From assembly GCA_037200925.1 (NCBI GenBank), contig JBBCGO010000001.1, positions 824,235 through 888,234 on the forward strand: a DNA stretch of 64,000 nucleotides, in the 5' to 3' direction. The translations under genes and the position numbers were made by a program. Of the stretch, positions 9,529-64,000 are shown one piece after another. Every line of letters begins with the position of its first letter. Positions within the stretch are counted from its first letter, which is position 1. The stretch is from Candidatus Doudnabacteria bacterium. GTDB lineage: Bacteria > Patescibacteriota > Doudnabacteria > UBA920 > O2-02-FULL-48-8. Below the pieces are notes generated by a model. The model saw nothing but the letters and a program-made list of their open reading frames with translations. It was not told where the DNA came from and did not search any database.

Positions 9529-12069
9529 ATGAAAAAAATATCTTTTTTTACGGCTTTAATCGGCATTTTTGCGGGTTTAGTGGTTTTTGCAGGGTCTGCC
9601 CATGCCATGACGCCAACTTTGTCCTTAACCGGCACCGGCGACGGCGATTCTGTCCAGATCAATGTCACCGGCGATCCCAGCGTTAATGTTTTGCTGTTTT
9701 ACACCAAAACCAATGTCGGGTCGCAGATAGCCACATTGGGGATGACCAATGCCAGCGGCAATTTTTCAAATACTATCAGCTCTTCCGGCTACGGCATTGC
9801 CGCCGGCACCTCGGTTTACGTTGAGACCACCGGTTTGAACGGTCCGCAATCGGCTGCCGTGGCCTGGCCGATCGCATCGACCAGCGGCACGTTTTCCTTG
9901 AGTCCGACCGGAGTTGTGCTTTCCGCCGGCCAAAATTCCACCATTACCGCGTCCAACAACGGCGGCAACACGCTTTATTTATCCAACAATTCCAACCCGC
10001 CTGTGGCCAACGCCAACATCAGCGGCAATCAAATTAATATTACGGCCTTAAGCAACGGCTCCACGGTCCTGACCGTCTGCACCAGCGGCAATACGTCAAC
10101 TTGCGCCAGCGCCTATGTTACCGTGCAGAACAGCGGCGGGCAAGCGCTGACATTCAGCCTAAGCAATGTGACCGTGGCTCCGGGCCAGAGCGTGCCCATC
10201 ACCATCAGCGGCGGCAACGGCAGTTATTCAACGTTAAACAATTCTAATTCCGCGGTCATCCAAACCAATATCAGCGGGTCCACAGTAACTCTCAGTACCA
10301 ACGGCACCAGCGGCTCCGCGGCCATAACCATTTGTTCGTCGGATATGGCGGCATGCGGCATTATCAATGCCACGGCCGGCAGCGCCAGCACCACGGCGCT
10401 GTCGCTCAGTCCGTACAATCCCACCCTGGCACCCGGCCAAAGCTTGAATGTGACCATTTCGGGCGGGGCTTCGTCAACATATTATGTTTCTTCCAACTCC
10501 AATCAGACCTCGTTAAGCACAAGCGTAAACGGGAGTAATCTGACGCTGACCGGCAATAGCTACGGTACGGCAAATCTGGTGGTATGTTCATCAAGCGGCA
10601 GCTGCGGCAACCTGACCGTGACAGTCAGCTATGTTTCCTACGGCGGCACCATAACTTTAAGCCAAAGCAGCATAGTGCTGCTGGTCGGGCAGGTCTTGAG
10701 CGTGACGGTCACAGGCGGCACTACGCCTTATTCCTTGTCTCCGGCTCAGAGCAATTTATTCCAGGCCAGCCTCAATGGCAATGTGGTCACCCTGTCCGGA
10801 ATTGCGGCCGGATCTTCCACGGTCTACGTCTGTTCTGCCGGCAGTGCCTGTGCCACGTTATCCGTCACAGTCAACGCCTCAGGCGCCGGTACGCCCATAA
10901 CCTTCAGCCAAAATAATATCAATTTGAGCATGGGAGGAATTACCGCGCTGACCATAACCGGCAGCGGCGGCTACTATGCCTCCACCAACTCCAATCCCAG
11001 CGTCGCTACTGTGCAGATCAGCGGCAGCACTGCTCTGGTCACGGCCGGCAGCGCCGGTTCAAACAATATTTCCATTTGCCAAAGCGGCGGACAATGCGCG
11101 ATCTTATTCGTGACCGTCAGTTCCGGCACCTCCACCGTTTCCATCCCGGCATTCAGCAACACTAATCCCGTGATCACGGCAGGACAGGTCTTGAACGAAA
11201 CTATTTCCGGAGGCGCTTCAAGCAATTATTATATTCTGGCCAACACCAACCCCGCTGTCGTGCAGTTGAGTCTGAACGGCAATCAGCTGGCCCTGTCAGG
11301 CTTAACCGGCGGTTCATCCACAGTTGCGATCTGTGCGACATCCAACAGTTGCGCCGTACTGACCGTTACGGTGAACGGGACTGCCGCATCGAACATTTAT
11401 TTTGCCACCACCAGCCTGCCTCTTGGCATAGTAGGGCAGGCTTACAACAACCAGATCATGGCCGCGGGCGGCAACGGCAGCTACACGTTCACCTTAACTT
11501 CGGGAAGCCTGCCTTCGGGGCTGACTTTATCCGCCACCGGTTTGCTTTCCGGTACCCCTATCGGAACTGCCAATAATAATATTTCCATTATGGCCGCGGA
11601 CAGCACCGGCAATTCCGCCACAGCGAATTTTACCCTGACCGTAAATAATGCCGCTCCCGTTGCTCCCGCTCCCGCCAGCACGGGCCCATACCAGAACGGC
11701 CAATTGATCCTTGAAAACGGCACAGTTTATATCGTTTATCAAAACACCAAAGTCGGGTTTGCCAGTGCGGATGCGTTCGTGGGTCTGGGTTATCAATTCA
11801 GCAATGTCACTCCCGTAACTGATTCGGGGTTGGCGGTTTCCAGCAAGGTCGTGGTCACGGCCGACGGGGGACATCCCAGGGGTTCGTGGCTTCTGAGCGG
11901 CCAGGCGGTATTTTTTCTGACACCCGACGGGTTGATCCCGGTCCCTGACTGGAATACCTTCCTAAGCAACGGCGGCCAGGCCATTTTCATAGTCAGTGCC
12001 AACAGTTTTGATCTGGCCCGGCCCAGACTGGCAAACATGAGCATGAACGATTCCAGGCTGAGCCCCTAA
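9529..12069 (+). CDS. Large secreted surface protein with about 7 tandem Big_2-like Ig domains and a C-terminal putative-Ig (He_PIG-like) domain
   Basis: Signal peptide MKKISFFTALIGIFAGLVVFAGSAHA. Repeated ~85-aa units each end ...VC.S.G.C..L.VTV. The C-terminal IYFATTSLPLGIVGQAYNNQIMAAGGNGSYTFTLTSGSLPSGLTLSATGLLSGTP is He_PIG-like. Confidence 0.6.
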   Translation: MKKISFFTALIGIFAGLVVFAGSAHAMTPTLSLTGTGDGDSVQINVTGDPSVNVLLFYTKTNVGSQIATLGMTNASGNFSNTISSSGYGIAAGTSVYVETTGLNGPQSAAVAWPIASTSGTFSLSPTGVVLSAGQNSTITASNNGGNTLYLSNNSNPPVANANISGNQINITALSNGSTVLTVCTSGNTSTCASAYVTVQNSGGQALTFSLSNVTVAPGQSVPITISGGNGSYSTLNNSNSAVIQTNISGSTVTLSTNGTSGSAAITICSSDMAACGIINATAGSASTTALSLSPYNPTLAPGQSLNVTISGGASSTYYVSSNSNQTSLSTSVNGSNLTLTGNSYGTANLVVCSSSGSCGNLTVTVSYVSYGGTITLSQSSIVLLVGQVLSVTVTGGTTPYSLSPAQSNLFQASLNGNVVTLSGIAAGSSTVYVCSAGSACATLSVTVNASGAGTPITFSQNNINLSMGGITALTITGSGGYYASTNSNPSVATVQISGSTALVTAGSAGSNNISICQSGGQCAILFVTVSSGTSTVSIPAFSNTNPVITAGQVLNETISGGASSNYYILANTNPAVVQLSLNGNQLALSGLTGGSSTVAICATSNSCAVLTVTVNGTAASNIYFATTSLPLGIVGQAYNNQIMAAGGNGSYTFTLTSGSLPSGLTLSATGLLSGTPIGTANNNISIMAADSTGNSATANFTLTVNNAAPVAPAPASTGPYQNGQLILENGTVYIVYQNTKVGFASADAFVGLGYQFSNVTPVTDSGLAVSSKVVVTADGGHPRGSWLLSGQAVFFLTPDGLIPVPDWNTFLSNGGQAIFIVSANSFDLARPRLANMSMNDSRLSP
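9886..11390 (+). repeat. Diverged in-frame tandem repeats (~255-270 nt units) encoding the Ig-like domains
   Basis: Recurrent protein-level periodicity (SLSP...G...L.V...GG....Y......N.......S......L...G.......VC.....C..L.VTV). Confidence 0.5.
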
Positions 12070-12124: not shown

Positions 12125-15100
12125 TCATTCGGATCTGAGCATCGGATATTTTTCTTTTATCCATTTGGTAAAGGATGCCGCGTCTATCGCCGGGCTGAAC
12201 AATTTTCCCTGGCCGCCTTCGCATTTTTGCGATGCAAGAAATTCCAATTGTTCTTTCGTTTCAACTCCTTCGGCAATGACTTTTAATTTCAAATTGTGCG
12301 CCATAGAAATGATGGCTCTGACGATTTCCGCATCCTGTTCGCTGGTGAGGCAGTCTTTTATGAACGATCTGTCGATCTTCAGGTTATTCAAAGGAAAACG
12401 GTTGAGATAGCTTAACGATGAATAGCCTATGCCGAAGTCATCTATGGAAATCTCAAATCCTAATTTTTTCAGGCGCTCCAGCTGCTCAGTTGTGATTTTG
12501 AGATTATGCATGGCAATACTTTCGGTTATTTCCAATTCTATGAAAGCCGGCTTAAGCTTGAGTTCGTGCAGCGTTGAAGCGATTTTTTTGACCAGATTTG
12601 CCTGGGTAAATTGATGAGCGGAAAGGTTGACAGCCAGTTTCAGGTCCGGCAGATCTAATTTGTGCCATTTTTTTAATTGCATGCCGGCCGTTTTCAGGAC
12701 CCAGTCATCGATAGCAATAATTGCGCCGGTGTCCTCAGCCGCAGCAATGAATTCGCGAGGCAGGATCAAACCCAGCTTGGGATGCTGCCATCGGATCAGC
12801 GCTTCGACTGACATTAATGTGCCGTCTTTGACGTTTATCACCGGCTGATAAAATATTTTCAATTCTTTGCGGGACAGCGCCGTGCGCAAAGCAGTTTCGA
12901 TGGCCAATTTTTTGGAGGTCCGCTCGCTCATGCCCTGGTTATAGAGCAGGTGTTTGCTTCTGGCGGATTCTTTCGATCTGTACAAAGCCGTATCCGCGTT
13001 TTTCAGAAGCGTGTGAATATCTTTTCCGTCTTCAGGATAGAGCGCAATGCCCATGCTGGCCCCGACGTGGAGCGTATGGTTATTAATTTTAAATGCCGGC
13101 TTTAATGCCGCAGTGATCTTTTCCGCAACCTTTACCGTCTGGGTGTCATCCCTGATGTTGATAAGCAGAATGATAAATTCATCACCGCCCCACCTTGACA
13201 GCGTATCTTCCCGCCGGATGCACGATCCCAATCGTTCACCGACTTTTTTCAGCAGTTCATCTCCCACGCTGTGTCCCAGCGTGTCGTTGATCGTTTTAAA
13301 TTGGTCTAAATCCAAAAATATGATGCCTACCCGCTCTTTGTGCCGTTTGGCGCGATTAAGCGTCATGCCCAGGCGATCTTCCAGCAATTTTCTGTTGGGC
13401 AGGTTGGTGAGCGTATCATGAAAAGCTTGATGGTGAATTGTCCGTTCGGACTGCTTGCGTTCCCTCACGTCCCGGGCTACGACCGCAATTGCCGAGGATC
13501 TCTTTGTTTTGGGATCGCTTATGGCAAATATATGCATTTCCGTCACAATGGGCGTGCTTGTGGGCAAATGTTTGAGCTGCAGTTCGCCCGTCCAATTTTC
13601 ACCGAGAACTATCGCAGGCAGAATATCCTTTTCCAGTTTTTCCCTGTCAGCTTTCATAAAATAATCAAAAATAGTCATACGTTTTCCATTCCCGTTGCTG
13701 CCGCGCGGGTTTCCTACAAGGCGCCTCCCTCCGCCGTTGAGAAAGAGTATCTTGCCTTCCGGCAGCACCAAACTGATAAAATCGCTGCTGTTTTGAATAA
13801 GCGAGGATAATTCGCGCTGGCGCTGCGAAATGTCCTCGATCGCCAATAAGATCAGGCCAGGCGACCTTTCTCCGTCCTTTGGAATAGCCCGGGCATTCAG
13901 GAGCATGGTCCTGGATTCGTGATTAGGAAAATCATGTTCAATTTCTAAGTCGTGGAATTTTTTACCCTCCGGCAAAATTTCTTCCAAGAGCTTGCGCAAG
14001 CGGGGGATATTCCATTGTCCCTTTTCTATTGTGTACAAGGGCTGCCCCACGACATCTTTTTTCAAAAGTTTAAAAGTAGCATAAAAAGCGGAATTCGCTT
14101 CTTTGATGCGGAGGTCTCCGTCCAGAACCAAAAGAGGTTCGCGGACCGTGTCAAAAACCGCTTCAATATATTCCAGGCTGGTTTTCAGCTTGTCGATGTC
14201 GATCAGCGTAATGACCGTGCCGTTGATCTTGTTGTCGTGGGAGCGGGAAGGATGGATTTGCAGAGAATGCCAGGTGCCTTGCAGATCCTGAACGTCTTTT
14301 TTATATGGCGTGCCGGTAATTATCACTTCCCGCAGCAGCTCTTCCATGTTGGGGACTTTGAGGTTGGATTTGATGTCAGTGATGGGGCGGCCGATATCCG
14401 AGGGTAATATCCTCAAAATTCTTACTGCAGTGGGGGTAAAGCGCCTCACGGTCAGGTCATGTTCCAGCATCACCACCGGTATATCCACGGTGCTCAGAAG
14501 ATTGACCAGATCTTCGGACAACTGCCCTAATTCTGAATTTCTGTGCTGGACTTCTTCATTGACCGTGGTTAATTCCTCATTGGTGGACTGCAGTTCTTCC
14601 TTGGCTGTTTCCAGTTCTTCGTTGGTGCTTTGCAGCTCTTCGTTGCTGGACATGATCTCTTCGTTGGCTGCCATCAATTCTTCGTTGGCCGCCTCATGGT
14701 TTTCGATCAGTTCCTGCAGATATTTTCTGGTTGAGCTGACTTCTTGTTCCAGCTGCTTGTAAGTCTGATTTTTGGAACGTGGCCCTTGGCGCCGATCATT
14801 ATTTTTTTTGACCTTTGCGGCCTGAGCTGAGCTTTCTTCAAAAAGGATCAGGAAGTATGCTCCATTTTTTCCTATCGGAAGAACTTCAATATTGATGTTC
14901 CGATGGCTGCCGTTGATGGTCAGGCCGACATTTTCTTTCCGGAACGGCTTTTTGGTTTTTTTCGCTTCATCAACCGCCTGTGACAATTCTGAAAACAGGC
15001 CGACGGCCACCATTTTCAGTAAACTAAAACTTGCCTTCCCGGGCGCCATCTCCAGGTAAGGGCGGGTTTGGCCCCGGAATTGAATAACCTCCAGTTTGTT

Positions 15101-16750
15101 GTTGATCAAGATGCCGGCCGGAGCAAAATTGTTCACGATCAGGCGGTCAGCTTCTGCCTGAGCGTCCTTGACGCCCAGAATTTTGTTATCTGCAGCGGCT
15201 GTCTGCACCTGCTGCGTTACCGTATCGGCGGTTATCAGGTCGCGTTCATGACGCTGGTCAGAAAGCGGCTGATTGAAAGAAGTGATTGCAGCCGGGTTTG
15301 CCAGGGGATTTTTGGAATAGATCTTATGCTTTTTATCGATTGGAACGAACAGATCGGAAAAACTTCCGGTTGTCTCGGCGGTTCCGAGCTTTAAGAATCC
15401 TCCCGGTTTGAGCGCAAAATGAAACACCGGAAAGATTTTATGGTGCAGTGCCGGCCCCATGTAAATGAGAAGATTTTGGCAGCTGATAAAATCCAGAAAC
15501 GAAAAGGGAGGATCTTTTATCAAATTTTGCTTGGCAAAAACGCACATCTCTCTTATCTGTTTGCTTATCTGGAAACCGTTTTCTACTCTGTGGAAAAAAC
15601 GCTCCAGCCGCTCGGGCGAGACGTCCAGAGCAATATTTTCGATGTAGATCCCTTCGCGGGCGCGGGCCAATGACTTATCGCTGACGTCAGTGGCAAATAT
15701 TTGTACGGGAATGGCGATCTCGCGCTTTTTTAAATATTCAGACAAACTGATGGCAATGGAATAAGCTTCCTCGCCGGTGGAACATCCCGGCACCCAAATT
15801 CTTACGGGTTTGTCCGGAGGTTTGTTTTTTACGAGCGCCGGCCAGACCTTATGTTCCAGTATCTTAAACCCTTCGGGTTCGCGGAAGAAGCGGGTTACGG
15901 TGATCAGAATTTCGTCATACAGTTCACTGATCTCTTGAGGATGGCTCTTTATGAACTCCACATAATCTTTGTAGCTTTCCATCTTATTGAGTGTCATCCG
16001 TCGTTCTATGCGCCGTTTAATTGTGGCGTATTTGTAATTGGCAAAATCAACGCTGGTGTGGATCCGCAGCAAATTCAGAATTTTATGCATCGACTCATTG
16101 CCGGATGCTACGAATTCTTGAGCTGTTTCATATTCGGGCTTGGCCAAGTGCCCATTTTTCGCAAGCTGGCCTAATTCTTTACCGATGTTTTTGGCGGAAA
16201 GGATATGGTCCACGTTGCCGCTGGCAATGGCAGACTGCGGCATGCCGTTATATTTTGCGGATTCCAGATCCTGGGCAATGGTTATGCCGCCCACGGATTT
16301 AATTTCCGAAATACCAAGCGTGCCGTCACTGCCGGTGCCCGACAGAATGACGCCGATCGGCGGCGTACTACTACTACTATCGTCGGCAAGCGATCTGAAA
16401 AAAATATCTATTGGCATATGCTGGCCGTCAAACATTTTCCGCGGTGTCAGATACAGGATCCTGTCTTTTATGGTTATATTTTTATTCGGCGGAATAACAT
16501 ACACGGTATTTGGTGAAACCGGCATATTATTCTTGGCTTCCAGGATCGGAATAGAGGTTTTTTTACTGAGAATTTCCTGCAAATAACTTTCGTGATGGGG
16601 ATCTAAATGCTGAACCAGGACGTAAGCCATATTGGAACGAGGAGGCAAGTATGAAAGCAATTCAAGAAAAGTCTCCAAGCCCCCGGCTGATGCCCCTATA
16701 CCCACAATAGGAAAATTCCCCCTCGGTGCAAGAGGATATTTCTTTTGCAT
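12125..16750 (-). CDS. Giant multidomain signalling protein: CheB methylesterase - CheR methyltransferase - PAS - coiled coil - PAS - GGDEF - EAL
   Basis: CheB_methylest motif VGIGASAGGLETFLELL. The NEEL-repeat coiled coil EELMAANEEIMSSNEELQSTNEELETAKEELQSTNEEL is typical of CheB/CheR fusion proteins. RWGGDEFIILL (GGDEF), EALIRW, ELEITES and DDFGIGYSSLSYL (EAL) follow. Confidence 0.85.
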   Translation of the reverse strand: MQKKYPLAPRGNFPIVGIGASAGGLETFLELLSYLPPRSNMAYVLVQHLDPHHESYLQEILSKKTSIPILEAKNNMPVSPNTVYVIPPNKNITIKDRILYLTPRKMFDGQHMPIDIFFRSLADDSSSSTPPIGVILSGTGSDGTLGISEIKSVGGITIAQDLESAKYNGMPQSAIASGNVDHILSAKNIGKELGQLAKNGHLAKPEYETAQEFVASGNESMHKILNLLRIHTSVDFANYKYATIKRRIERRMTLNKMESYKDYVEFIKSHPQEISELYDEILITVTRFFREPEGFKILEHKVWPALVKNKPPDKPVRIWVPGCSTGEEAYSIAISLSEYLKKREIAIPVQIFATDVSDKSLARAREGIYIENIALDVSPERLERFFHRVENGFQISKQIREMCVFAKQNLIKDPPFSFLDFISCQNLLIYMGPALHHKIFPVFHFALKPGGFLKLGTAETTGSFSDLFVPIDKKHKIYSKNPLANPAAITSFNQPLSDQRHERDLITADTVTQQVQTAAADNKILGVKDAQAEADRLIVNNFAPAGILINNKLEVIQFRGQTRPYLEMAPGKASFSLLKMVAVGLFSELSQAVDEAKKTKKPFRKENVGLTINGSHRNINIEVLPIGKNGAYFLILFEESSAQAAKVKKNNDRRQGPRSKNQTYKQLEQEVSSTRKYLQELIENHEAANEELMAANEEIMSSNEELQSTNEELETAKEELQSTNEELTTVNEEVQHRNSELGQLSEDLVNLLSTVDIPVVMLEHDLTVRRFTPTAVRILRILPSDIGRPITDIKSNLKVPNMEELLREVIITGTPYKKDVQDLQGTWHSLQIHPSRSHDNKINGTVITLIDIDKLKTSLEYIEAVFDTVREPLLVLDGDLRIKEANSAFYATFKLLKKDVVGQPLYTIEKGQWNIPRLRKLLEEILPEGKKFHDLEIEHDFPNHESRTMLLNARAIPKDGERSPGLILLAIEDISQRQRELSSLIQNSSDFISLVLPEGKILFLNGGGRRLVGNPRGSNGNGKRMTIFDYFMKADREKLEKDILPAIVLGENWTGELQLKHLPTSTPIVTEMHIFAISDPKTKRSSAIAVVARDVRERKQSERTIHHQAFHDTLTNLPNRKLLEDRLGMTLNRAKRHKERVGIIFLDLDQFKTINDTLGHSVGDELLKKVGERLGSCIRREDTLSRWGGDEFIILLINIRDDTQTVKVAEKITAALKPAFKINNHTLHVGASMGIALYPEDGKDIHTLLKNADTALYRSKESARSKHLLYNQGMSERTSKKLAIETALRTALSRKELKIFYQPVINVKDGTLMSVEALIRWQHPKLGLILPREFIAAAEDTGAIIAIDDWVLKTAGMQLKKWHKLDLPDLKLAVNLSAHQFTQANLVKKIASTLHELKLKPAFIELEITESIAMHNLKITTEQLERLKKLGFEISIDDFGIGYSSLSYLNRFPLNNLKIDRSFIKDCLTSEQDAEIVRAIISMAHNLKLKVIAEGVETKEQLEFLASQKCEGGQGKLFSPAIDAASFTKWIKEKYPMLRSE

Positions 16751-43884: not shown

Positions 43885-44268
43885 GGGGCTGCTCAGATTC
43901 GACAGAAGTTCTTTGATAAATATTGCAAGTCCGATTAGCCTAATTTCTCGGTTAAAAAAACAAGGCAAATCATAAATGCCAATTCTTTGGTAAGCAAGGT
44001 TAAGAATGCTTTTGCATTCTCTCCTGCTTTGGCTCTCGCTTAATACGTGAAAGCCCATCCGCCCCGCAAAGTCTGTGCGCGGGATACGGGTGTTATATTA
44101 TCCGGACTCACTTTAGCTGGCGCCTGACGGCTTTAGGACACTAAGGGCTTAACTTAAACCGCTTTCGTCCGTTTTTATGGTTTGAGCCAACAATTCAAGC
44201 GGTCCAAACTTGTAGATATATTTGTTAAAATCTTTTGGACGGGAGTGCAATTCTCCCCAGCTCCACCA
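43885..44268 (+). ncRNA. ssrA: tmRNA (SsrA)
   Basis: 5' GGGGCUGCUCAGAUUCGACAGAAG, 3' ...GGACGGGAGUGCAAUUCUCCCCAGCUCCACCA. Acceptor stem with the G3-U70 wobble, T-arm and CCA. Internal reading frame ...GCU UUU GCA UUC UCU CCU GCU UUG GCU CUC GCU UAA (tag ...AFAFSPALALA). Convergent with smpB. Confidence 0.85.
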
Positions 44269-55138: not shown

Positions 55139-57142
55139 ATGAAAGAAAATTTAGGGCTTAATCAAGCTCAATTAGAAGCTGTCACGGCCCCGATGGGACC
55201 GGTTTTGATTTTGGCCGGCGCAGGCAGCGGCAAAACGCGCGCTTTGACCATGCGGATCGTTTATCTGATAAAAAAGATCGGTTTAAGCCCGCGCAATATT
55301 TTGGCAGTGACGTTTACCAACAAAGCCGCGGGAGAAATGAAGGAGCGGATCACGAAACTGCTCGGAAAGAACCTTGATGGTTTGCCGACCATGGGAACTT
55401 TTCATTCCATTGGGGTTAAGATCCTGCGCATCGACGGAAAATTAGTCGGGCTTGATCCTAATTTTTTGATCTACGACAGCCAGGACCAGGAAAGCCTGAT
55501 CAAAGATATTTTATTAAGACAGCGCGTGGACCCGACCAAATACAAGCCGTCAATGTTCGGCGCCATCATTGACCGGGCGAAAAACAATCTGGAGGAACCC
55601 GAGGATATGGAGGAAGACGATAAGGCTTTTTCACGGACGGTAAAAAAAGTTTATGAGACTTATCAGGAGGAGCTGCGGAAGAACAATGCCGTGGATTTCG
55701 GCGACCTTTTGGTTTTACCGGTCAGGATCTTTCAAAAGCATCCCGAGGTTTTGGCAAAATACCAGAAACTCTGGCAATACATCCTGGTAGACGAATACCA
55801 GGACACGAACTATGCCCAGTATATTTTTACCAAACTCCTGGCCGCGGCCCATGAGAATATTTTTGTGGTCGGGGATGACGCACAGGCGATCTACGGTTTT
55901 CGCGGGGCTGACCTGCAGAATATCCTGGACTTTGAAAAAGATTATCCCAAGGCCCGCGTCATCCGCCTCGAGCAGAACTACCGCTCTACGGCTCCGATCC
56001 TTTCTATCGCGGAAAAGATCATTGAATTAAGCCCCCGCCAGCATAAAAAAAAGCTCTGGACGGAAAATGAGCAGGGGAAAACCCCGGTCTTGTTCGTGGC
56101 CCCGGATGAACTGGCAGAAGCTTACTTTGTCGCCGGCAAGATCATTGAACAGCAGGACGGGAAGTCAGAAGAGATGCAATACGTGGAAGAGGATGACGAG
56201 ACAATCCTGGGACGAATTATGCGCAATGCCAAATCCAAGATCTTGCCCAAGCTTAGGAACCGGAACGGACTGAACAACATTGCCGTGCTTTACCGTACGC
56301 ACGCCCAGTCGCGCGTTTTGGAAGAAGTTATGATCGAGGCCTCGATCCCTTACCAGATCGTCGGCGGTTTGAAATTCTACGAACGCAAAGAAATTAAAGA
56401 TATCTTGAGTTATTTGAGGCTTTTGGTTAATTCCAATGATCTGATAAGCATGAAGCGTGTCATCAACACCCCTCCACGCGGCATTGGTCCGAAGACCTTT
56501 GACTTGCTCAAAGAATCTTTGCTCGAAAAGAACGAGAAATTGCTTGGTGAATTGATGGCAGCCAAGCCTGCGGTCAAGAATTTTTTTGAAATGCAGGATC
56601 TGCTGACCAATCTGGATGAAAGCGGCAATCTGCTTGATCTGCTTCGCCAGGTCCTGAAACTGACCGGCTATGAAAGTTTTTTGCGCGATGGGTCGGAAGA
56701 AGGCGAAGGCCGATGGGAAAACGTCCAGGAACTGTTCAATGTGGCCGGCAGTTTTCGGGGGTTGCCCTGGAAAGAAGGATTGAATCAGTTTTTGGAAGAA
56801 GTGGCGCTCATGACCTCTGCTGATGAAGTTGATATGAATTCTCCGAAAGTAACTCTTATGACCTTGCATCAGGCGAAAGGCTTGGAATACGAAACCGTGT
56901 TTCTGGTGGGGCTGGAGGAAGGCTTGCTGCCCCATGCCCGCTCTTTGCTTGAACCAAAAGACATTGCCGAGGAAGTGCGCTTGGCTTATGTGGGCGTGAC
57001 CCGCGCGCGAAAAAATCTGTATCTGGTCTATGCGCAAACGCGCAAACAGTACGGCATGAGGAATGTTTCGATACCGTCAAGGATCCTCAAAGCCATCCCT
57101 GAAGAATTATTGGACATCCATGAATCAAATCAATACTGGTGA
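55139..57142 (+). CDS. uvrD: ATP-dependent DNA helicase UvrD/PcrA
   Basis: Walker A AGAGSGKT, motifs II (DEYQDT), VGDDAQAIYGFRGA, helicase C-terminal motifs. Confidence 0.9.
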   Translation: MKENLGLNQAQLEAVTAPMGPVLILAGAGSGKTRALTMRIVYLIKKIGLSPRNILAVTFTNKAAGEMKERITKLLGKNLDGLPTMGTFHSIGVKILRIDGKLVGLDPNFLIYDSQDQESLIKDILLRQRVDPTKYKPSMFGAIIDRAKNNLEEPEDMEEDDKAFSRTVKKVYETYQEELRKNNAVDFGDLLVLPVRIFQKHPEVLAKYQKLWQYILVDEYQDTNYAQYIFTKLLAAAHENIFVVGDDAQAIYGFRGADLQNILDFEKDYPKARVIRLEQNYRSTAPILSIAEKIIELSPRQHKKKLWTENEQGKTPVLFVAPDELAEAYFVAGKIIEQQDGKSEEMQYVEEDDETILGRIMRNAKSKILPKLRNRNGLNNIAVLYRTHAQSRVLEEVMIEASIPYQIVGGLKFYERKEIKDILSYLRLLVNSNDLISMKRVINTPPRGIGPKTFDLLKESLLEKNEKLLGELMAAKPAVKNFFEMQDLLTNLDESGNLLDLLRQVLKLTGYESFLRDGSEEGEGRWENVQELFNVAGSFRGLPWKEGLNQFLEEVALMTSADEVDMNSPKVTLMTLHQAKGLEYETVFLVGLEEGLLPHARSLLEPKDIAEEVRLAYVGVTRARKNLYLVYAQTRKQYGMRNVSIPSRILKAIPEELLDIHESNQYW

Positions 57143-57929
57143 ACTGAAAGATTATTTCCGCGCGCGGGGACTTAAGCCCAAGGATTACATGGGTCAGAAT
57201 TTTTTGATCGATGCGGATGTGCTGGGGGAGATCCTGAAAGTTGCGGAGCTCAAACCAACCGATATCGTATTAGAGGTTGGCCCTGGTCTTGGAGTTTTGA
57301 CAAGGCAGTTGGCAGATAAGTCAAAAGAGATCTGGGCTGTGGAAAAAGATCATAAATTAATCCCTCTGCTTAACATAGAATTGAAAGACAAAAAAAACGT
57401 TCATATCGTGCATGATGATATTTTAAGATTTCATGTCGCGGAAAATATCAAAGGAGATTATAAAGTTGTCGCCAATATCCCTTATTATTTGACATCAAAG
57501 TTAATTCAGAATTTTTTGGAATTACGAAACCCGCCGAAACTTCTGGTGCTCATGGTCCAGAAAGAAGTGGGGGAACGGGTGGTGGCAAAACCGGGAGAAC
57601 TTTCCGTACTCGGAATATCCGTGCAGATCTATTCAGACCCTGAAGTTGCATTAAATGTCTCCAAACAAAGTTTCTGGCCTGTGCCTGAAGTGGATTCAGT
57701 GATACTCAAAATTGTCCCAAGCAACAAATACCCGCAGATCAAAGACAAAAAATTATTTTTCCGCATTATCAAAACAGCTTTTTCCGGCAAACGAAAACAA
57801 ATTCACAACACGATAAAAGATCCTGCAGCTTTGCAAAAAGCGGGGATCGATCCCAAAGCCAGACCGCAGGACCTCTCAATTGAGCAGTGGATCGAGCTTT
57901 ATAAAGCCTTGGAAGCATCTGATATCTGA
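57120..57929 (+). CDS. rsmA: 16S rRNA (adenine1518-N6/adenine1519-N6)-dimethyltransferase RsmA/KsgA (start at the Met after the UvrD-overlapping leader)
   Basis: GQNFLID, VLEVGPGLGVLT, NIPYYLTS motifs. Confidence 0.85.
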   Translation: MNQINTGELKDYFRARGLKPKDYMGQNFLIDADVLGEILKVAELKPTDIVLEVGPGLGVLTRQLADKSKEIWAVEKDHKLIPLLNIELKDKKNVHIVHDDILRFHVAENIKGDYKVVANIPYYLTSKLIQNFLELRNPPKLLVLMVQKEVGERVVAKPGELSVLGISVQIYSDPEVALNVSKQSFWPVPEVDSVILKIVPSNKYPQIKDKKLFFRIIKTAFSGKRKQIHNTIKDPAALQKAGIDPKARPQDLSIEQWIELYKALEASDI

Positions 57930-58095
57930 AAAAGTGTTTTGGGGCTTGCAAAGAATCAGAATCTGTGCTATAATATATATATAGTTTGAAACGGTTTTCG
58001 AAACAAAAACCAACAAAAATCAATAAAATAAAGCCGAAATGAGAGATTTGGCAAGCCTAGTTTTGAGCTTGTCATTCCTTATTTTGAGAGACGGC

Positions 58096-58476
58096 ATGTT
58101 CATGTCAAGAAATAAACAAGAAGCAACCAGATTATTTGCACTAACAGTAATACTTATTAGTGTGCTGTTTTTGCCTCATACTCATAAGGCTCAGGCGCAA
58201 GCGGCAGGCCTGCCTTTCGGCGGCCGGCTTTTGTTTACTACGCCCCCAATTATCACAGTATTTGTCAATTGTCCTGCTATAGCTACCGTTTCAAATTTTG
58301 GACCAGGACCAAAAGTTTTGCATTTACTACTGCCTCCGATACAACCTAGATCTTTTTATAATTTTTATCTTCCCGGGGTCGCAGTTTTAGGAACATATTT
58401 TCCTACCCCGCTTCCTTTTAATTGTCCAATAGCGCCAATTTTTCCAGCATTCTATTTTGGGACAAGCGGCAGATAA
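58096..58476 (+). CDS. Small secreted Pro/Phe-rich protein, hypothetical (start at the Met preceding the signal peptide)
   Basis: Signal peptide MFMSRNKQEATRLFALTVILISVLFLPHTHKAQA, then a Pro-rich ~100-aa mature region with two Cys. Confidence 0.4.
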   Translation: MFMSRNKQEATRLFALTVILISVLFLPHTHKAQAQAAGLPFGGRLLFTTPPIITVFVNCPAIATVSNFGPGPKVLHLLLPPIQPRSFYNFYLPGVAVLGTYFPTPLPFNCPIAPIFPAFYFGTSGR

Positions 58477-58480
58477 AAAA

Positions 58481-59437
58481 ATGTTCAGAAATAAAAAACC
58501 AAAAAATCAATACGGAACGTTTGCTACCGACAGGCCACAGAACAAAAAAACTGCGAAAATTTTAATTACGGTTTTGCTGGGCGTGATTTTTGTTTTGGGC
58601 GTTGGTATTGCTTTGTTTAGGAAAGCCAATAAGCCTGTCCAGATAGCCGAAGTGCAGCAAATTTCAGCTACGATCCCGGGATGGTGGTATCAGCAATATT
58701 TCGGTTCCAGCGTTTGTACTCCTCAAAGCAGCAATTGGAATGTTTGTAAACCCGACGCTGATCCAGACCACGATGTATTGACCAATGCGCAGGAATTTTA
58801 TTATCACACCGATCCTAATAATAACCACACCGTTGGAGATAAAATGTCTGACGGACAATTGGTCGCTGGTGGATTTGATCCGAGCAAATCAGGAAAAATT
58901 ACTTTTGATCAGGCAGCCAACGACGGGAATATTTTTGGAGAAAGTTTGGTTTTTGACAAAGACATAAAAAGCATGATTTCGGATATGACCGATGTCAATA
59001 ATGCACCTTTACCCGACGTTAGTGATGCGAGCATCAAAACTTCGAATGACAATTCGAAGCAAAGCATTAGTGATTATTTAAACCAGCTTAACAATATTTT
59101 TAAGAAATATTTTCCAGATGACGTCGACATTGCAACCCTGATCAAGGTTCAGGACCCCAACGGCCTGGATGATTTGAGAACAAATACTGCCAAGGCATTG
59201 TCGGAAACAGAGCAAATTACGGTTCCATCTGACGCTGTGCAGCTTCAGAAATATCAAATTGGCCTGTTGCAAACTATTCCTTTAATCATGGTTTTGCCTT
59301 CCCAGAGTGAGCTGTCTGACACAACGAACGTAATTAGCAACTCTTGGTATGATAGTGTCCGTACTTACACTTCATTGGTTCAAAAGACCGGCATTGAAGC
59401 CACGAAATTAGTGAAAAAATACAATGTCGGTAAATAG
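58481..59437 (+). CDS. N-terminally membrane-anchored extracytoplasmic protein, hypothetical
   Basis: KILITVLLGVIFVLGVGIALF anchor. No recognisable motif. Overlaps neighbours on both sides. Confidence 0.4.
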   Translation: MFRNKKPKNQYGTFATDRPQNKKTAKILITVLLGVIFVLGVGIALFRKANKPVQIAEVQQISATIPGWWYQQYFGSSVCTPQSSNWNVCKPDADPDHDVLTNAQEFYYHTDPNNNHTVGDKMSDGQLVAGGFDPSKSGKITFDQAANDGNIFGESLVFDKDIKSMISDMTDVNNAPLPDVSDASIKTSNDNSKQSISDYLNQLNNIFKKYFPDDVDIATLIKVQDPNGLDDLRTNTAKALSETEQITVPSDAVQLQKYQIGLLQTIPLIMVLPSQSELSDTTNVISNSWYDSVRTYTSLVQKTGIEATKLVKKYNVGK

Positions 59438-61145
59438 AATAAAAAAAACAATCTCGATTGGCTTAACTGGAAGCATTGTTTTATTGCAAGTTTTGTTTTT
59501 TTCATTGGCTTCAGCTCCTTCTGTAGCTCACGCGGATGATTTTCCTTTGCCGTCAACCTTTATTCCGCCGTCAACAATAGCAATTACCGTGCCCACAACA
59601 ACGGCGTTGAACATACCCGATCAGCTCGATAATAAATACATTGCCATTATGAGGGGCATTGCTTTTGCCGCAGTCCAAAAATTCACCTCAGTTTTTATCA
59701 ATAAATTAACGGAGAAATATAAGATCAGGAACTACCTCTATTATGACCAAGTTTTAACTAATTATTATTTAAGCAATTATATTAGTGATAAGATCCAAGA
59801 CCCGAATTTGCGGCAAATATACGGCTTGATGAACGCAGGTTATGTAACAGGCCAATCAACAGGAACTACCGGAGGACCCGATCCGAACAAAGCTCTAATC
59901 CCAAGGCTTAAAACTGCGATCAATAATTATTATCAGAATAATTTTGGCGTGTCAGATAATGTGATAACCAACAATCCGAATAATTTATCGGGCTATGATT
60001 ATTATTCCACTGCTTTCAGTTATTATCTCAACCCGCCGGGTTATGTGTATCAAAACCTCCAGGGACAATTTGGGGCATTCCAGTCAGCCGCCACGACAGC
60101 GGCGCAGCTGGAAGTAATAGTCGGCAACAGTCTGAAAGCCGGGCGAGTTGTCGGAGGTTTTTGCAGTAATACGACCGATAACGTTTCCTGGGGCGATGGC
60201 TGGGCGCCTGCTTCATGTGTAGCCTCCGGCGGCAAATGGAATGCTTCGGCTCTGGATAATGCCCGATCTTTTATCGATAACCCCACCACTTTTATAAATA
60301 ATTGGTTACAGGGAGTTATATCAAGCCAGACCAACACCAATTTTGACCCAAATAACTTTTGGTACGCGATTGGCGGCGCCTTAGGAAACTTTTTACTTAA
60401 TTCATTAACCGCCAGTTCCAGTAGCAGTGCAGTAATAAATGAAGATCCAAATCACCCTTATGTTCCATCAAACAATGGGGGAATTACTTCGGGGGCAAAT
60501 ATAGATATTGATGGCGACGGGATAGCAGACGGATTTTCTGTCAATAATAACGGTATAATTGATAATTGTTTCTTTGGCGGCACAGCTCCAAATAATTGCG
60601 TCGGATCGAAAACTGCGCTGGCTCCGCCACCAGCGGGGGGAACTTGTACTGTGACCAGTACGGGCACGGCTGGCACACAACCGGATTCAATTGATCTGAA
60701 TTCCGTTGTATATGAAGCAGGTTCACCTAATGTCGCCGGCTGGGCCCAGACCGCGACCATCACAAATCCCGATCTCTCTGCAAATGGTTCAATTGATTTT
60801 ACTAAGAAAGATGGTCCTGACCGTTGGCCAGATCAGCCGTATACTGCGGGAAGCGCCGACACAATTCAATACACTATCTGGTATTTCCTGTATATTGACG
60901 GCCAATGGTATGGAGCTGCGGTGGTTGATCAGTGGTTTGGAAGGCCAGGCAATGGAGGCGGCATTTATAATTCCAATCCGCCGCTCTGCAATTGGGCAAC
61001 CGGCAGCCAGTACGGTCCGATGTTCGGGCATATGATCGTGCCAGGCGAGAAAGTCGGAATTATGGTTACTGCAGGAGGGGTGCGGCAGAACCATGATTCA
61101 AATATCAAAGAGAGATCAGACGTTGTAGTTGTGCCGGCACCTTGA
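59424..61145 (+). CDS. Secreted 573-aa protein with a calcium-binding-like DIDGDGIADG loop, hypothetical
   Basis: Signal peptide ...ASAPSVAHA. Asn/Tyr/Gly-rich. DxDxDG motif. Confidence 0.45.
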   Translation: MSVNRIKKTISIGLTGSIVLLQVLFFSLASAPSVAHADDFPLPSTFIPPSTIAITVPTTTALNIPDQLDNKYIAIMRGIAFAAVQKFTSVFINKLTEKYKIRNYLYYDQVLTNYYLSNYISDKIQDPNLRQIYGLMNAGYVTGQSTGTTGGPDPNKALIPRLKTAINNYYQNNFGVSDNVITNNPNNLSGYDYYSTAFSYYLNPPGYVYQNLQGQFGAFQSAATTAAQLEVIVGNSLKAGRVVGGFCSNTTDNVSWGDGWAPASCVASGGKWNASALDNARSFIDNPTTFINNWLQGVISSQTNTNFDPNNFWYAIGGALGNFLLNSLTASSSSSAVINEDPNHPYVPSNNGGITSGANIDIDGDGIADGFSVNNNGIIDNCFFGGTAPNNCVGSKTALAPPPAGGTCTVTSTGTAGTQPDSIDLNSVVYEAGSPNVAGWAQTATITNPDLSANGSIDFTKKDGPDRWPDQPYTAGSADTIQYTIWYFLYIDGQWYGAAVVDQWFGRPGNGGGIYNSNPPLCNWATGSQYGPMFGHMIVPGEKVGIMVTAGGVRQNHDSNIKERSDVVVVPAP

Positions 61146-61165
61146 TGTGCTGTTAAATTTGAAAA

Positions 61166-64000
61166 GATGAAACAAAAAGCAAAAATTAGTATATTTATGA
61201 GTTCAATCTTGGCAAGCTTAGTGTTTGCTAATTTTGCTTTGGCGCAGGCAAATCCTCCGATTATTGTCACAAATCCTTTTCCTTCCACGACTACTACACC
61301 TTCTACACCCGATACTATTACTTCGGCTGAGCTCATCCAGATGGATAAGACTGGGCAACAAATGCGCGATGCCTACACGAATGGTGCCGGGACCTTCACG
61401 GGCTTTACCCATAGCGTGGAAAGCTGGTCTTATGCGCCATTTGATACATATAAACAACAATGCAAGGCCATTGGTGATAAACTCGCCCAAGCGTTCCCAA
61501 ATACTGTGAATACCAGCAGCGGTGTGAGTACCACCGTAGGTCTGAATACTATATTTGATCCGTACAATTTTTATTGCACCTGGGGCAGGTATACGGGAGT
61601 TTCCACAACACCCGACAGCTTAGGAAGGAATATTACTGTTGTAAAAGATGACCAAATTGATAATTTGAGGATCATGAAAATGAGCGGCGGTTCCATCAGT
61701 TCCTTGCCTGAAATTCAAAAGAACAGGGAAGCCGCGCAGGCGGCATCGGATAATCAAAGAGCTTCGGTCAATCCTTTAAGCCAGGCGGTAGGCTGGGTTA
61801 TATCGTTTATTTTGAATGTGATTACATATGTACTTTTGGCATTGAGTTCTTTGGCCGGCATAATATTGAACTGGTCAATTGGGAATTTCGGATCGGCAAT
61901 TCAGAGCGAAATAGTATTGAGCGGATGGACAATTGTGCGGGATCTAATGAACATGTTTTTCATTCTTGCGTTTATCGCTATGGCTTTGGCCACAATTTTA
62001 CAGATCGGAGAAGAGTACAACTACAAGCGCTTACTGCCAAAATTGATTATTATGGCTTTACTTATAAATTTCAGCAAAGTCATTGCCGATACGCTGATCA
62101 ATTTTTCCAATTTTTTAACGCAAGTATTTGTTCCGGCGGGCGGGTTTGGTGATTTTGGTCAATTTATTTCAGGGCTTGTAACTCAGGGCCAGGGACCGTT
62201 GGGCCTTTTTATTACCAGTTCCGGCGGAGCGGCAGCGGCATTGGGTCAAGGCATCCTCAAAGTCATAACAGCACTAATTATTACGTTCAGTTTTTTGGCA
62301 ATTGCCGGATTGCTGCTGGTGAGGATAGTCGGGTTATGGGTTCTGACCGTGATCTCTCCTGTAGCATATGCTTTAAATATTTTACCCATCACTGAACACT
62401 ATGCTCGGGAGTGGTGGCAGTGGTTCATCAAATATTTGATCTGGGCTCCTGTATCAATTTTCATGTTGAGAATAGGGGAACAACTGATCGCTATTAAAGG
62501 CTCGCTTACCACCAATGATATGTTTAGTTTTATATTGGTTTCGTTCTTCATGTTTTCGGCGGTGCTAGTGGCGCAAAAAGCCGGCATGGTGGGAGGCGAT
62601 ATGATAATCAACGGAGTAAAAGGCGGAATGGCATTTGCCGGCGGACTCGTGGGAGGAACCGTAGGGAGAGCGTATACAAAGCGAATGAATGCCAATGCTG
62701 ATGCCGCAACTGTGTCCGGAAATACATTCAGAGCGGGGCTGTATAAAGCCGCTGCTTTCTTGAATCCTGTAGCGGCGAGGAAGGCTTTTGAACAGCGCAG
62801 CCACCATCTCGAAGAAGAAGCTTATGGTCCGGCTGTAGGCGCGATGCACGATACTTTGAACCGCGTTATGCCGACTGAATGGCACAATTTAGGCAATGTA
62901 CTTAAGGGCCAGGCTCCAAGTTTAGGCAGAACGACCCAGTTTGGCCAAATAGAAAGCAACCGCGTCATAAACAAGAAAGTTAAAGAAATTAACGAAGCCG
63001 GTTTGACGGAAAAGCAAAGAAGCGAGGGATATATGTCATCCTCCCATTTGGTGGATAAATTGGCTTATGGCCGGGCCATAGCCATGAATAACGGTCAGGA
63101 TGGCTTGGCTGGTGAAAGAGGTCAGAAATATGATCCTACAGCCTATAAAGAAATGATATTTAAGGATTTGATCGCGGCGGGAGCTAATCCTTTGCAAGCC
63201 GGGCGGGAAGCGAATTATATTTCTGAACTGTCCGATGGAAACAAGAAAATCCGGGATTTGGGAGCGGGGGTTGAGGCTGATGTTGACGGTAAACCGCGCG
63301 CGACAGTTGATCTATCTGCAGTTATAGACTTAGGAAAGAAAAATTTTGACGGACCGGATGGATTACAGTCATATTTAAAGAAATTAGGAGTTATTAATCC
63401 CACTACAAACCAATTTGAAGATCGAACGGGAAATGAGCTGGGAGTTGTCAATAATATGGATGATTTTAATGCCTTGTTGAATAAAACCGGCATAACAGAA
63501 GATGAGAAATTATATGATGGCAAGGACTTCAGGCATGAAATAATGAGCGCCCGCGGAGCGCTCGAAGCCGATAGGCGCGGGAAAAGATGGGACGCTGAAG
63601 ATCTGGCTAAGGCATTGGAGCCTGCAGGCACCCATGTCCAGGAATTAAACGGAACATGGGAACATCTTAGCGGCCAAGGCTCAAGATTTTATCAAAGAAT
63701 GAATCCTTCCGTCGGAGCTGCAATTCCGGGAATGCGCAGAACCGCGCCGCGTATGCAAGCCACGATAGGAGGCAGTATAGATGTTAATGGTAAAATTGAT
63801 TATAGTTCAATACCAACCGATCCCAAAAAGCTAAAAATTTTAGTGGAGAATGTCCATTCCGGGCCTGAAGTTGCTTCTGGATTACTGACAAAGGGTAACA
63901 TTGATTTTACAACCGCAGAAAGGATAAGAGATCTTGTGAATGCAGAATTAAAGGAATATAGAAATTCGAAAAAAGCCACAAAAGAATTAGTTGTTGCACA
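61166..64000 (+). CDS. Large (>944 aa, 3'-incomplete) polytopic membrane protein: signal peptide, ~170-aa extracytoplasmic domain, ~6-7 TM helices, long hydrophilic C-terminal domain (VirB6/TrbL-like topology)
   Basis: Read manually in frame 2 with no stop codon from ATG 61166 to the window end. Signal peptide MKQKAKISIFMSSILASLVFANFALAQA. TM cluster VGWVISFILNVITYVLLAL..., MNMFFILAFIAMALATIL..., ILKVITALIITFSFLAIAGLLLVRIVGLWVLTVI..., WWQWFIKYLIWAPVSIFML.... Not in the supplied ORF track. Confidence 0.6.

Follow-up and report, generated by a model that had tools for sequence, protein, structure and literature searches.

In the cultivated Saccharibacterium Southlakia epibionticum, a type IV secretion system (T4SS) gene cluster is essential for epibiotic growth; it resembles Gram-positive conjugative systems most, carries pilins and is without a recognisable coupling protein or relaxase (PMC10633639). 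A survey that covered 3,035 genomes detected VirB4 in 2,417 of them; most belong to a Patescibacteria clade within MPF-FATA, and TrsD, VirB3/PrgI and VirB6 are encoded near virB4 (Quinonero-Coronel et al. 2025; PMC12102498). According to the same survey, KsgA (RsmA) is often found near virB4 in Patescibacteria in general, recG, comF and radA occur in loci of the ABY1 class, and the profile to which most VirB6 homologues of Patescibacteria align is that of VirB6, not of PrgH (PMC12102498). Its supplementary table includes the class Doudnabacteria, and the order VirB6-x-VirB3-TrsD-VirB4 is shown for another genome (PMC12102498). Here we describe a T4SS locus at the 3' end of a stretch of 64,000 nucleotides (hereafter the window) from a 964-kb contig (JBBCGO010000001.1) of a metagenome-assembled genome of Candidatus Doudnabacteria.

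The locus opens with four genes, which we call P1 to P4, all of them named 'hypothetical protein' by NCBI (WDN47_05040 to WDN47_05055). An earlier reading of the window (hereafter the original prediction) took them for part of a novel multi-protein envelope machine. The T4SS core genes that follow P4 bear out the machine, and it is very probable that the region is the promoter-proximal part of a chromosomal Patescibacteria-type T4SS cluster derived from MPF-FATA systems. The claim of novelty did not hold: the locus is a member of the already described Patescibacteria T4SSs (PMC10633639, PMC12102498, PMC12857230), and no new system.

Organization and conservation of the cluster

ORF calling of the window revealed four consecutive and tightly packed open reading frames (ORFs) on the + strand, 3' of rsmA (57063-57929), as originally predicted. 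P4 runs off the end of the window and was located by translating all frames. Its continuation was obtained from Logan contig L001, which was found by an exact-protein look-up of P3 and shares 100% identity with the window at 58000-64000. The gene order is rsmA, P1-P2-P3-P4(VirB6)-D1-PIN-PrgI/VirB3-TrsD-VirB4-D6-D7, with recG convergent. The cluster is made up of 11 genes in ~13 kb, and the operon continues past the window, as had been anticipated, with D1 to D7 on the same strand:

57946..57974, + strand: promoter-like site (TTGCAA, 17-nt spacer, TG-TATAAT) in the gap between rsmA and P1
58039..58476, likely start 58102, + strand: P1 (WDN47_05040), small secreted Pro/Phe-rich protein of 124 amino acids (aa)
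58481..59437, + strand: P2 (WDN47_05045), 318-aa bitopic membrane protein; alternative TTG start at 58457
59424..61145, + strand: P3 (WDN47_05050), 573-aa secreted protein
61167..64000, + strand: P4 (WDN47_05055), VirB6/TrbL-like protein of 960 aa in full, 944 aa in the window
L001 14623-16101, same strand as P4: D1, 492-aa cytoplasmic protein whose start overlaps the P4 stop
L001 16157-16615, same strand as P4: PIN gene, PIN_3 domain with a toxin-like nuclease fold
L001 16716-17147, same strand as P4: PrgI/VirB3, 143 aa with two hydrophobic helices, Pfam PrgI
L001 17254-17952, same strand as P4: TrsD-like protein, 232 aa, directly 5' of VirB4
L001 17953-19785, same strand as P4: VirB4, 610-aa ATPase, ~6.2 kb past the window end
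L001, 3' of VirB4, same strand as P4: D6, 317 aa, N-terminally anchored
L001, 3' of D6, same strand as P4: D7, 343 aa, N-terminally anchored, TolB-like beta-propeller

The VirB4 protein exceeds the cut-off of the NCBIfam model conju_CD1110 ('VirB4-like conjugal transfer ATPase, CD1110 family'; 368.3 bits vs. 325) and also matches Pfam P-loop_TraG, AAA_10, DUF87 and CagE_TrbE_VirB. The PrgI/VirB3 protein likewise passes the Pfam PrgI cut-off (33.1 bits vs. 27). For the TrsD-like protein, matches were obtained to TrsD (E=6.8e-5) and to the N-terminal part of VirB4_plasma (E=1.9e-12), both below the full-length cut-offs, as would be expected of a fragment-sized protein; its precomputed Pfam annotation is TraC-like (PF26593). 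At the level of sequence, VirB4, TrsD, VirB3 and VirB6 (P4, treated below) are core members of the cluster. The original prediction had proposed a search downstream for VirB4- or VirD4-type ATPases, a relaxase or pilin genes. PrgI/VirB3, TrsD and the VirB4 ATPase are indeed encoded 2-6 kb past the window, but a relaxase, a VirD4-type protein and a pilin were not found in the cluster.

Among the remaining genes of the cluster, D1 has a Pro-rich middle, is sometimes present in two copies per locus and had no Pfam match. The PIN_3 gene is inserted between D1 and PrgI/VirB3 in eight loci (L001 and seven other Doudnabacteria) and is missing elsewhere. A S-H-x-x-G-x-x-x-D motif in D6 suggested a LAS-type peptidoglycan peptidase, a candidate that we rejected after finding no support in Pfam, NCBIfam or PDB.

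The genes are packed as in an operon. The only sizeable intergenic gap is that between rsmA and P1, and the promoter-like site lies upstream of P1 only; with 10 of 12 consensus matches and an extended -10 TG in a consensus scan, which is a pattern match only, this site is a candidate for the operon promoter. For P1, 58102 is the probable start: L005 and L008, two further Doudnabacteria loci, encode homologues of 124 aa whose alignment with P1 begins at its second internal Met. The consensus of the P2 family begins MFRNK, corresponding to the ATG at 58481, and the NCBI gene call agrees (318 aa). P1 and P2 are therefore separated by a 4-nt gap and do not overlap, contrary to the original prediction. 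The predicted overlap of P2 and P3 is real and measures 14 nt, whereas P4 starts at 61167 instead of 61166, leaving a gap of 21 nt, not 20, between P3 and P4. No plausible terminator was found between P2 and P3 or between P3 and P4. Comparison with L001 indicated that the window lacks only the last 16 codons of P4. Homologues were found for all four ORFs, and their numbers (~70 each for P2 and P3, 227 for P3 in the representative library and 363 for P4) mark the four as genes and not chance ORFs. The P1-P4 locus showed no compositional anomaly, its GC content being within the range of the window.

One difference between the two assemblies was noticed 5' of this region. A G run of uvrD at ~55330 contains a one-base indel (GG in one, GGG in the other), and uvrD is split into calls of 66 and 601 aa on L001 vs. 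an intact 667-aa ORF in the window. Probably one of the two sequences is wrong at this site, through an assembly or homopolymer error.

An alignment of the P4 family was scanned against one genome per GTDB species. From the 363 confirmed matches, 80 were kept as loci with 10-kb flanks, and their ORFs were compared with the proteins of the present locus by phmmer and jackhmmer. Wherever the flank was long enough, the Doudnabacteria loci all showed the order M23 peptidase-UvrD-RsmA-(P1)-P2-P3-P4-D1-(PIN)-PrgI-TrsD-VirB4-D6-D7, P2-P3-P4 being kept in 12 of 12 loci with sufficient flank, and a convergent recG closes the cluster in other Doudnabacteria. The block is syntenic across Doudnabacteria, so the conservation check put forward with the original prediction came out in its favour, and the VirB6-D1-...-VirB3-TrsD-VirB4 core extends across many other Patescibacteria. 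The core order P4-like/D1-like/PrgI/TrsD/VirB4 was found also in Falkowbacteria, Uhrbacteria and unclassified Patescibacteria; of 81 loci, 47-52 have PrgI, TrsD and VirB4 on the 3' side of the P4-like gene, and 73 have D1 there. In the examined loci, P1, P3, D6 and D7 are essentially restricted to Doudnabacteria, and P2 and D1 have relatives elsewhere. The position next to rsmA was also found in other classes which, together with the fixed housekeeping flanks, indicates vertical inheritance at a fixed chromosomal site.

Many loci with the VirB6-PrgI-TrsD-VirB4 cluster are filed as 'uncultured Gammaproteobacteria bacterium' (L017, L018, L023, L025, L027, L029-L033 and others). Their gene content suggests that these labels are taxonomically wrong.

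The conserved chromosomal position bears directly on whether the cluster may be a conjugative Gram-positive-type T4SS, belonging to an integrated element (ICE) or a plasmid and moving DNA between cells. Some of its genes point in that direction: the best match of VirB4 is the CD1110 family, from the CTn2 conjugative element of Clostridioides, PrgI and TrsD belong to conjugative MPF-FATA systems (PMC12102498), and a PIN-domain gene, typical of toxin-antitoxin modules, lies inside the cluster. Nevertheless, we regard conjugation as highly improbable, because no relaxase or type IV coupling protein (T4CP) was found near the cluster and the housekeeping flanks (uvrD, rsmA, recG) keep the same order across Doudnabacteria. 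Neither a relaxase nor a VirD4/TcpA coupling protein was present in the gene calls of L001, which reach 10 kb to each side of P3 and include the cluster and 10 kb downstream, or among the ten ORFs of at least 400 aa in the window outside the L001 span (1-49423). The hint of conjugation in the original prediction was thus not sustained, no pilin gene having been found in the cluster or among these large ORFs either. The GC content, inside the range of the window, also speaks against a mobile element, and in the survey relaxases were present in 103 Patescibacteria genomes vs. ~2,400 with VirB4 (PMC12102498).

P4 and the VirB6/TrbL family

By hydropathy, P4 begins with a signal peptide and an ectodomain (~180 aa, two conserved Cys), continues with 5-7 hydrophobic helices at 208-470 and ends in a hydrophilic tail of ~460 aa. 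Our topology calls, made by Kyte-Doolittle hydropathy only, agree with the original description of a polytopic P4, of signal-peptide-like N-termini in P1 and P3 and of an N-terminal transmembrane (TM) helix in P2. The match of P4 to Pfam TrbL (PF04610) is sub-threshold but nearly full-length, spanning profile positions 4-210 of 215 (E=6e-4), and its precomputed annotation is PF19590 TrbL_3. TrbL was matched by 10 of 23 members of the P4 family, and three relatives reach its cut-off of 25.9 bits (P0007 with 37.5, P0020 with 30.6 and P0026 with 25.9 bits), P0007 matching P4 at E=7e-74. Moreover, the P4 gene lies two to three genes upstream of VirB3-TrsD-VirB4. Because family matches, topology and gene context agree, the VirB6/TrbL identity proposed in the original prediction is supported, and P4 can be read as a VirB6-like polytopic membrane subunit of a T4SS, with a homology that is supported transitively.

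D1 is encoded directly 3' of the VirB6-like gene almost everywhere, and is a candidate for a conserved partner of the VirB6 tail.

The proteins encoded between rsmA and VirB6

The three genes that precede P4 matched no known family or fold. P1 has a signal-peptide-like N-terminus with a predicted cleavage between AQA and QAAG, two conserved NCP motifs and 13.6% Pro, and it had no Pfam or NCBIfam match at E<=1, VirB2-type pilin families included. We considered P1 as a VirB2 pilin and rejected it, as it is proline-rich, has no profile match and shows no second hydrophobic helix pair. Homologues of P1 (124 aa, same position) were found in only two other Doudnabacteria loci, L005 and L008. Judging from this distribution, P1 is a variable accessory gene.

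Other small genes were observed in the same interval. A gene of the excisionase/MerR-type helix-turn-helix (HTH) class lies just 5' of P1/P2 in four loci (L002 4894-5148, L005 6163-6342, L011 5870-6079 and L070 3776-3958), with the motif …LLTLKQ..HLL.VH.NTLRNWE.EGLI..VR.GPRGDRRYKKQ…; it is missing from the window and is possibly a regulator of the cluster. In one locus only, a 69-aa ORF with two hydrophobic helices occupies the gap between rsmA and P2 (L003 6334-6543), and is VirB2-pilin-like in size and layout.

P2 has a short basic N-terminus and one TM helix at 22-49, followed by a conserved WW/Cys-Cys/DxDxD module and an extracytoplasmic four-helix bundle. Asp residues 94, 96 and 98 (D94, D96, D98) are invariant in the family alignment. 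P2 itself did not match the bacterial TSP3 family (PF18884), which was matched by 7 of 42 family members (best E=3.7e-4) and, above the cut-off, by the P2-like protein of L053 (37.1 bits vs. 25). The module is therefore predicted to be a degenerate bacterial TSP3-type Ca-binding-like repeat. In the structural model of P2, the ectodomain is all-alpha, with a four-helix bundle and pLDDT >90 over most of 170-314, and comparison with PDB returned generic helical bundles only. P2 was also considered as a VirB8/PrgL-like protein; the TM helix is present, but the ectodomain is modelled as an all-alpha bundle and not as the NTF2-like alpha+beta type, so P2 does not resemble VirB8.

P3 is composed of a signal peptide, a conserved helical domain at ~64-332 and a variable, beta-rich C-terminus. 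The DIDGDGIADG loop pointed out in the original prediction is present, as a DxDxDG Ca-binding-like loop with a Cys pair (361-395), and its key residues (D363, D365, C382 and C392) are invariant in 44 homologues. Distant relatives that match the C-terminal half only gave a single Pfam match, InlB B-repeat, in one protein.

Outside Doudnabacteria, the region 5' of VirB6 has a comparable layout, [rsmA]-P2-like (~200-300 aa)-secreted protein of 2,200-3,076 aa-(charged protein of ~200 aa), in ~35 of 48 full-flank loci. The giant secreted proteins contain a CBM_4_9 carbohydrate-binding domain and occupy the same position as the 573-aa P3; loci that encode them include L017, L023, L025, L027, L053 (1325-9217), L068, L071, L074, L081 and ~25 more. 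We examined P3 as a shortened homologue of the giants and rejected this candidate: hmmsearch gave weak N-terminal matches only (E=1e-4 to 8e-3, residues 4-85), and the hhalign probability of 76.8% obtained with the signal peptides fell to 1% after trimming of ~60 N-terminal residues from P3 and ~45 from the giants. The equivalence between P3 and the giants is one of position only. In a search of the literature, no relevant work connected giant proteins with T4SSs in the candidate phyla radiation.

It could be asked if P1-P3 are simply independent surface proteins, such as adhesins or wall-associated proteins, located between rsmA and a T4SS that comprises P4 onward only. No T4SS subunit proved homologous to them or similar in fold, P1 is sporadic, several genomes carry insertions between rsmA and P2 (HTH regulators, GIY-YIG-like ORFs and unrelated small ORFs), and a minority of the non-Doudnabacteria loci have quite different genes 5' of VirB6. 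However, this possibility has to contend with the invariable P2-P3-P4 order in Doudnabacteria, with the P2-like gene and large secreted protein directly 5' of VirB6 in ~35 loci of other lineages, and with the 14-nt overlap, the 21-nt gap and the missing terminator described above. PrgB of pCF10 is an example of a surface adhesin encoded in a Gram-positive T4SS operon. That such operons typically encode their own surface adhesins (PMC12102498) is a further point against independence. We consider their independence rather unlikely; the three proteins are most likely lineage-specific extracellular accessory parts of the T4SS.

A more specific proposal, for which our confidence is tentative, is that P2 and P3 constitute an undescribed extracellular module of the T4SS, host-contacting or wall-spanning, encoded directly 5' of VirB6. 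If so, a P2/P3 module, represented in sister lineages by a TSP3-repeat anchor and a CBM protein of 2,200-3,000 aa, would be kept across several candidate phyla (Doudnabacteria, Falkowbacteria, Uhrbacteria and others), would stand in for the adhesin or pilus that other T4SSs have, and could set which host is engaged. The 'grey' genes just 5' of VirB6 are not random: a membrane-anchored Ca-binding-repeat protein and a secreted protein, small in Doudnabacteria and giant and carbohydrate-binding in sister lineages, consistently precede VirB6, and a cytoplasmic protein of ~300-500 aa (D1) consistently follows it. The genes flanking VirB6 are thus candidates for the missing outer parts and for the cytoplasmic partner of the machine.

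Several observations weigh against the assignment of the whole region to a T4SS. The score of P4 against Pfam TrbL, 20.2 bits, is under the cut-off of 25.9, and a search of PDB sequences with the P4 family profile found no solved VirB6. No VirB8-, VirB1- or VirB2-like protein was recognised in the cluster. P1 is present in only 3 of the 12 Doudnabacteria loci that could be examined there, its own genome counted. As P1-P3 show no detectable similarity to any T4SS component, their place in the machine is argued from conserved adjacency and operon structure alone.

With these points taken into account, a chromosomal T4SS remains the reading that we favour, and its parts may be imagined to work as follows. 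VirB6 would be the centre of a translocon in the cytoplasmic membrane that VirB4, TrsD and VirB3 energise and anchor. P2 and P3 would form or organise a Ca-dependent extracellular part, either wall-spanning or host-contacting, with a function like that of the adhesins in Gram-positive T4SSs and of the P2-like and giant CBM proteins in sister lineages. P1 would be a dispensable secreted accessory protein, and D6 and D7 would add further envelope parts. The machine may serve an epibiotic or host-dependent lifestyle, through protein export to the host cell or import of material from it, and most likely not conjugation; a role in host interaction is what the lack of a nearby relaxase or coupling protein, combined with vertical inheritance, makes most likely. 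The Patescibacteria T4SS is essential in the single cultivated species tested, and a machine of this type may mediate host dependence in a very large share of uncultivated bacteria.

Protein export and nucleic-acid import are both compatible with our data. It was proposed that T4SSs take part in uptake in Patescibacteria, which are unable to make nucleotides (PMC11665869). A device dedicated to DNA or nucleotide uptake, ComB-like or similar to the archaeal Ced system, would import host nucleic acid and would not be an exporter. In this regard, VirB4 weakly matches CedB (E=7e-11), recG adjoins the cluster, and T4SS loci of the ABY1 class often hold comF, recG and radA. This support is purely circumstantial, since the CedB match reaches 41 bits against a cut-off of 700, recG is convergent and not operonic, and no DNA-binding or nuclease component was recognised. 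A dedicated uptake device is, in our view, unlikely.

Other features of the window lie outside the cluster. At 12125-16750 (- strand), Pfam domains revealed a 1,541-aa fusion of CheB methylesterase, CheR methyltransferase, PAS, GGDEF and EAL, which is unexpected in a reduced Patescibacteria genome and could have been acquired horizontally. Two further surface proteins are encoded at 1824-3965 (- strand; 713 aa, Ice_binding-like and SpaA prealbumin-like domains) and at 9529-12069 (+ strand; 846 aa, T2SS-T3SS_pil_N and He_PIG Ig domains), and a tmRNA gene lies at 43885-44268 (+ strand).

Comparison with known secretion systems

The likeness to the MPF-FATA systems (PrgH/PrgI/PrgJ of pCF10, CD1110 of C. 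difficile CTn2 and TrsD of pGO1) consists of a VirB4 that passes the CD1110 model, the PrgI and TrsD homologues, the lack of outer-membrane core components and the presence of surface proteins encoded in the operon. Unlike them, the present cluster is without a relaxase, a T4CP, a recognisable VirB1-type hydrolase and a VirB8/PrgL-like protein; its locus is chromosomal and vertically inherited, and its VirB6 was matched via the TrbL/VirB6 model.

VirB6 proteins extended by large hydrophilic domains are a described category, the 'extended VirB6' (PMC12857230, a 2025 review). P4 is similar to them, for example to the VirB6 paralogues of Rickettsiales, in combining at least five hydrophobic helices with large hydrophilic domains. 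It differs in how it is extended: at the N-terminus by a cleavable signal peptide and ~180 aa of ectodomain, at the C-terminus by a tail of ~460 aa. No sequence similarity to extended VirB6 proteins was detected outside the TM core.

The closest systems are the T4SSs of Patescibacteria themselves, that is, the Southlakia cluster (SEML1_0006-0019) and those of the Patescibacteria VirB4 clade. Arrays of VirB2-like pilins are essential in Southlakia, whereas no VirB2-like pilin gene or array was recognised in the present cluster. In addition, P1-P3, D1, D6 and D7 carry no annotation here, and no member of the Doudnabacteria is in culture. What the present cluster and these systems have in common is the monoderm-type VirB6-x-VirB3-TrsD-VirB4 set in the same order, a cluster with neither relaxase nor coupling protein, and a chromosomal site beside housekeeping genes, among them ksgA/rsmA and recG.

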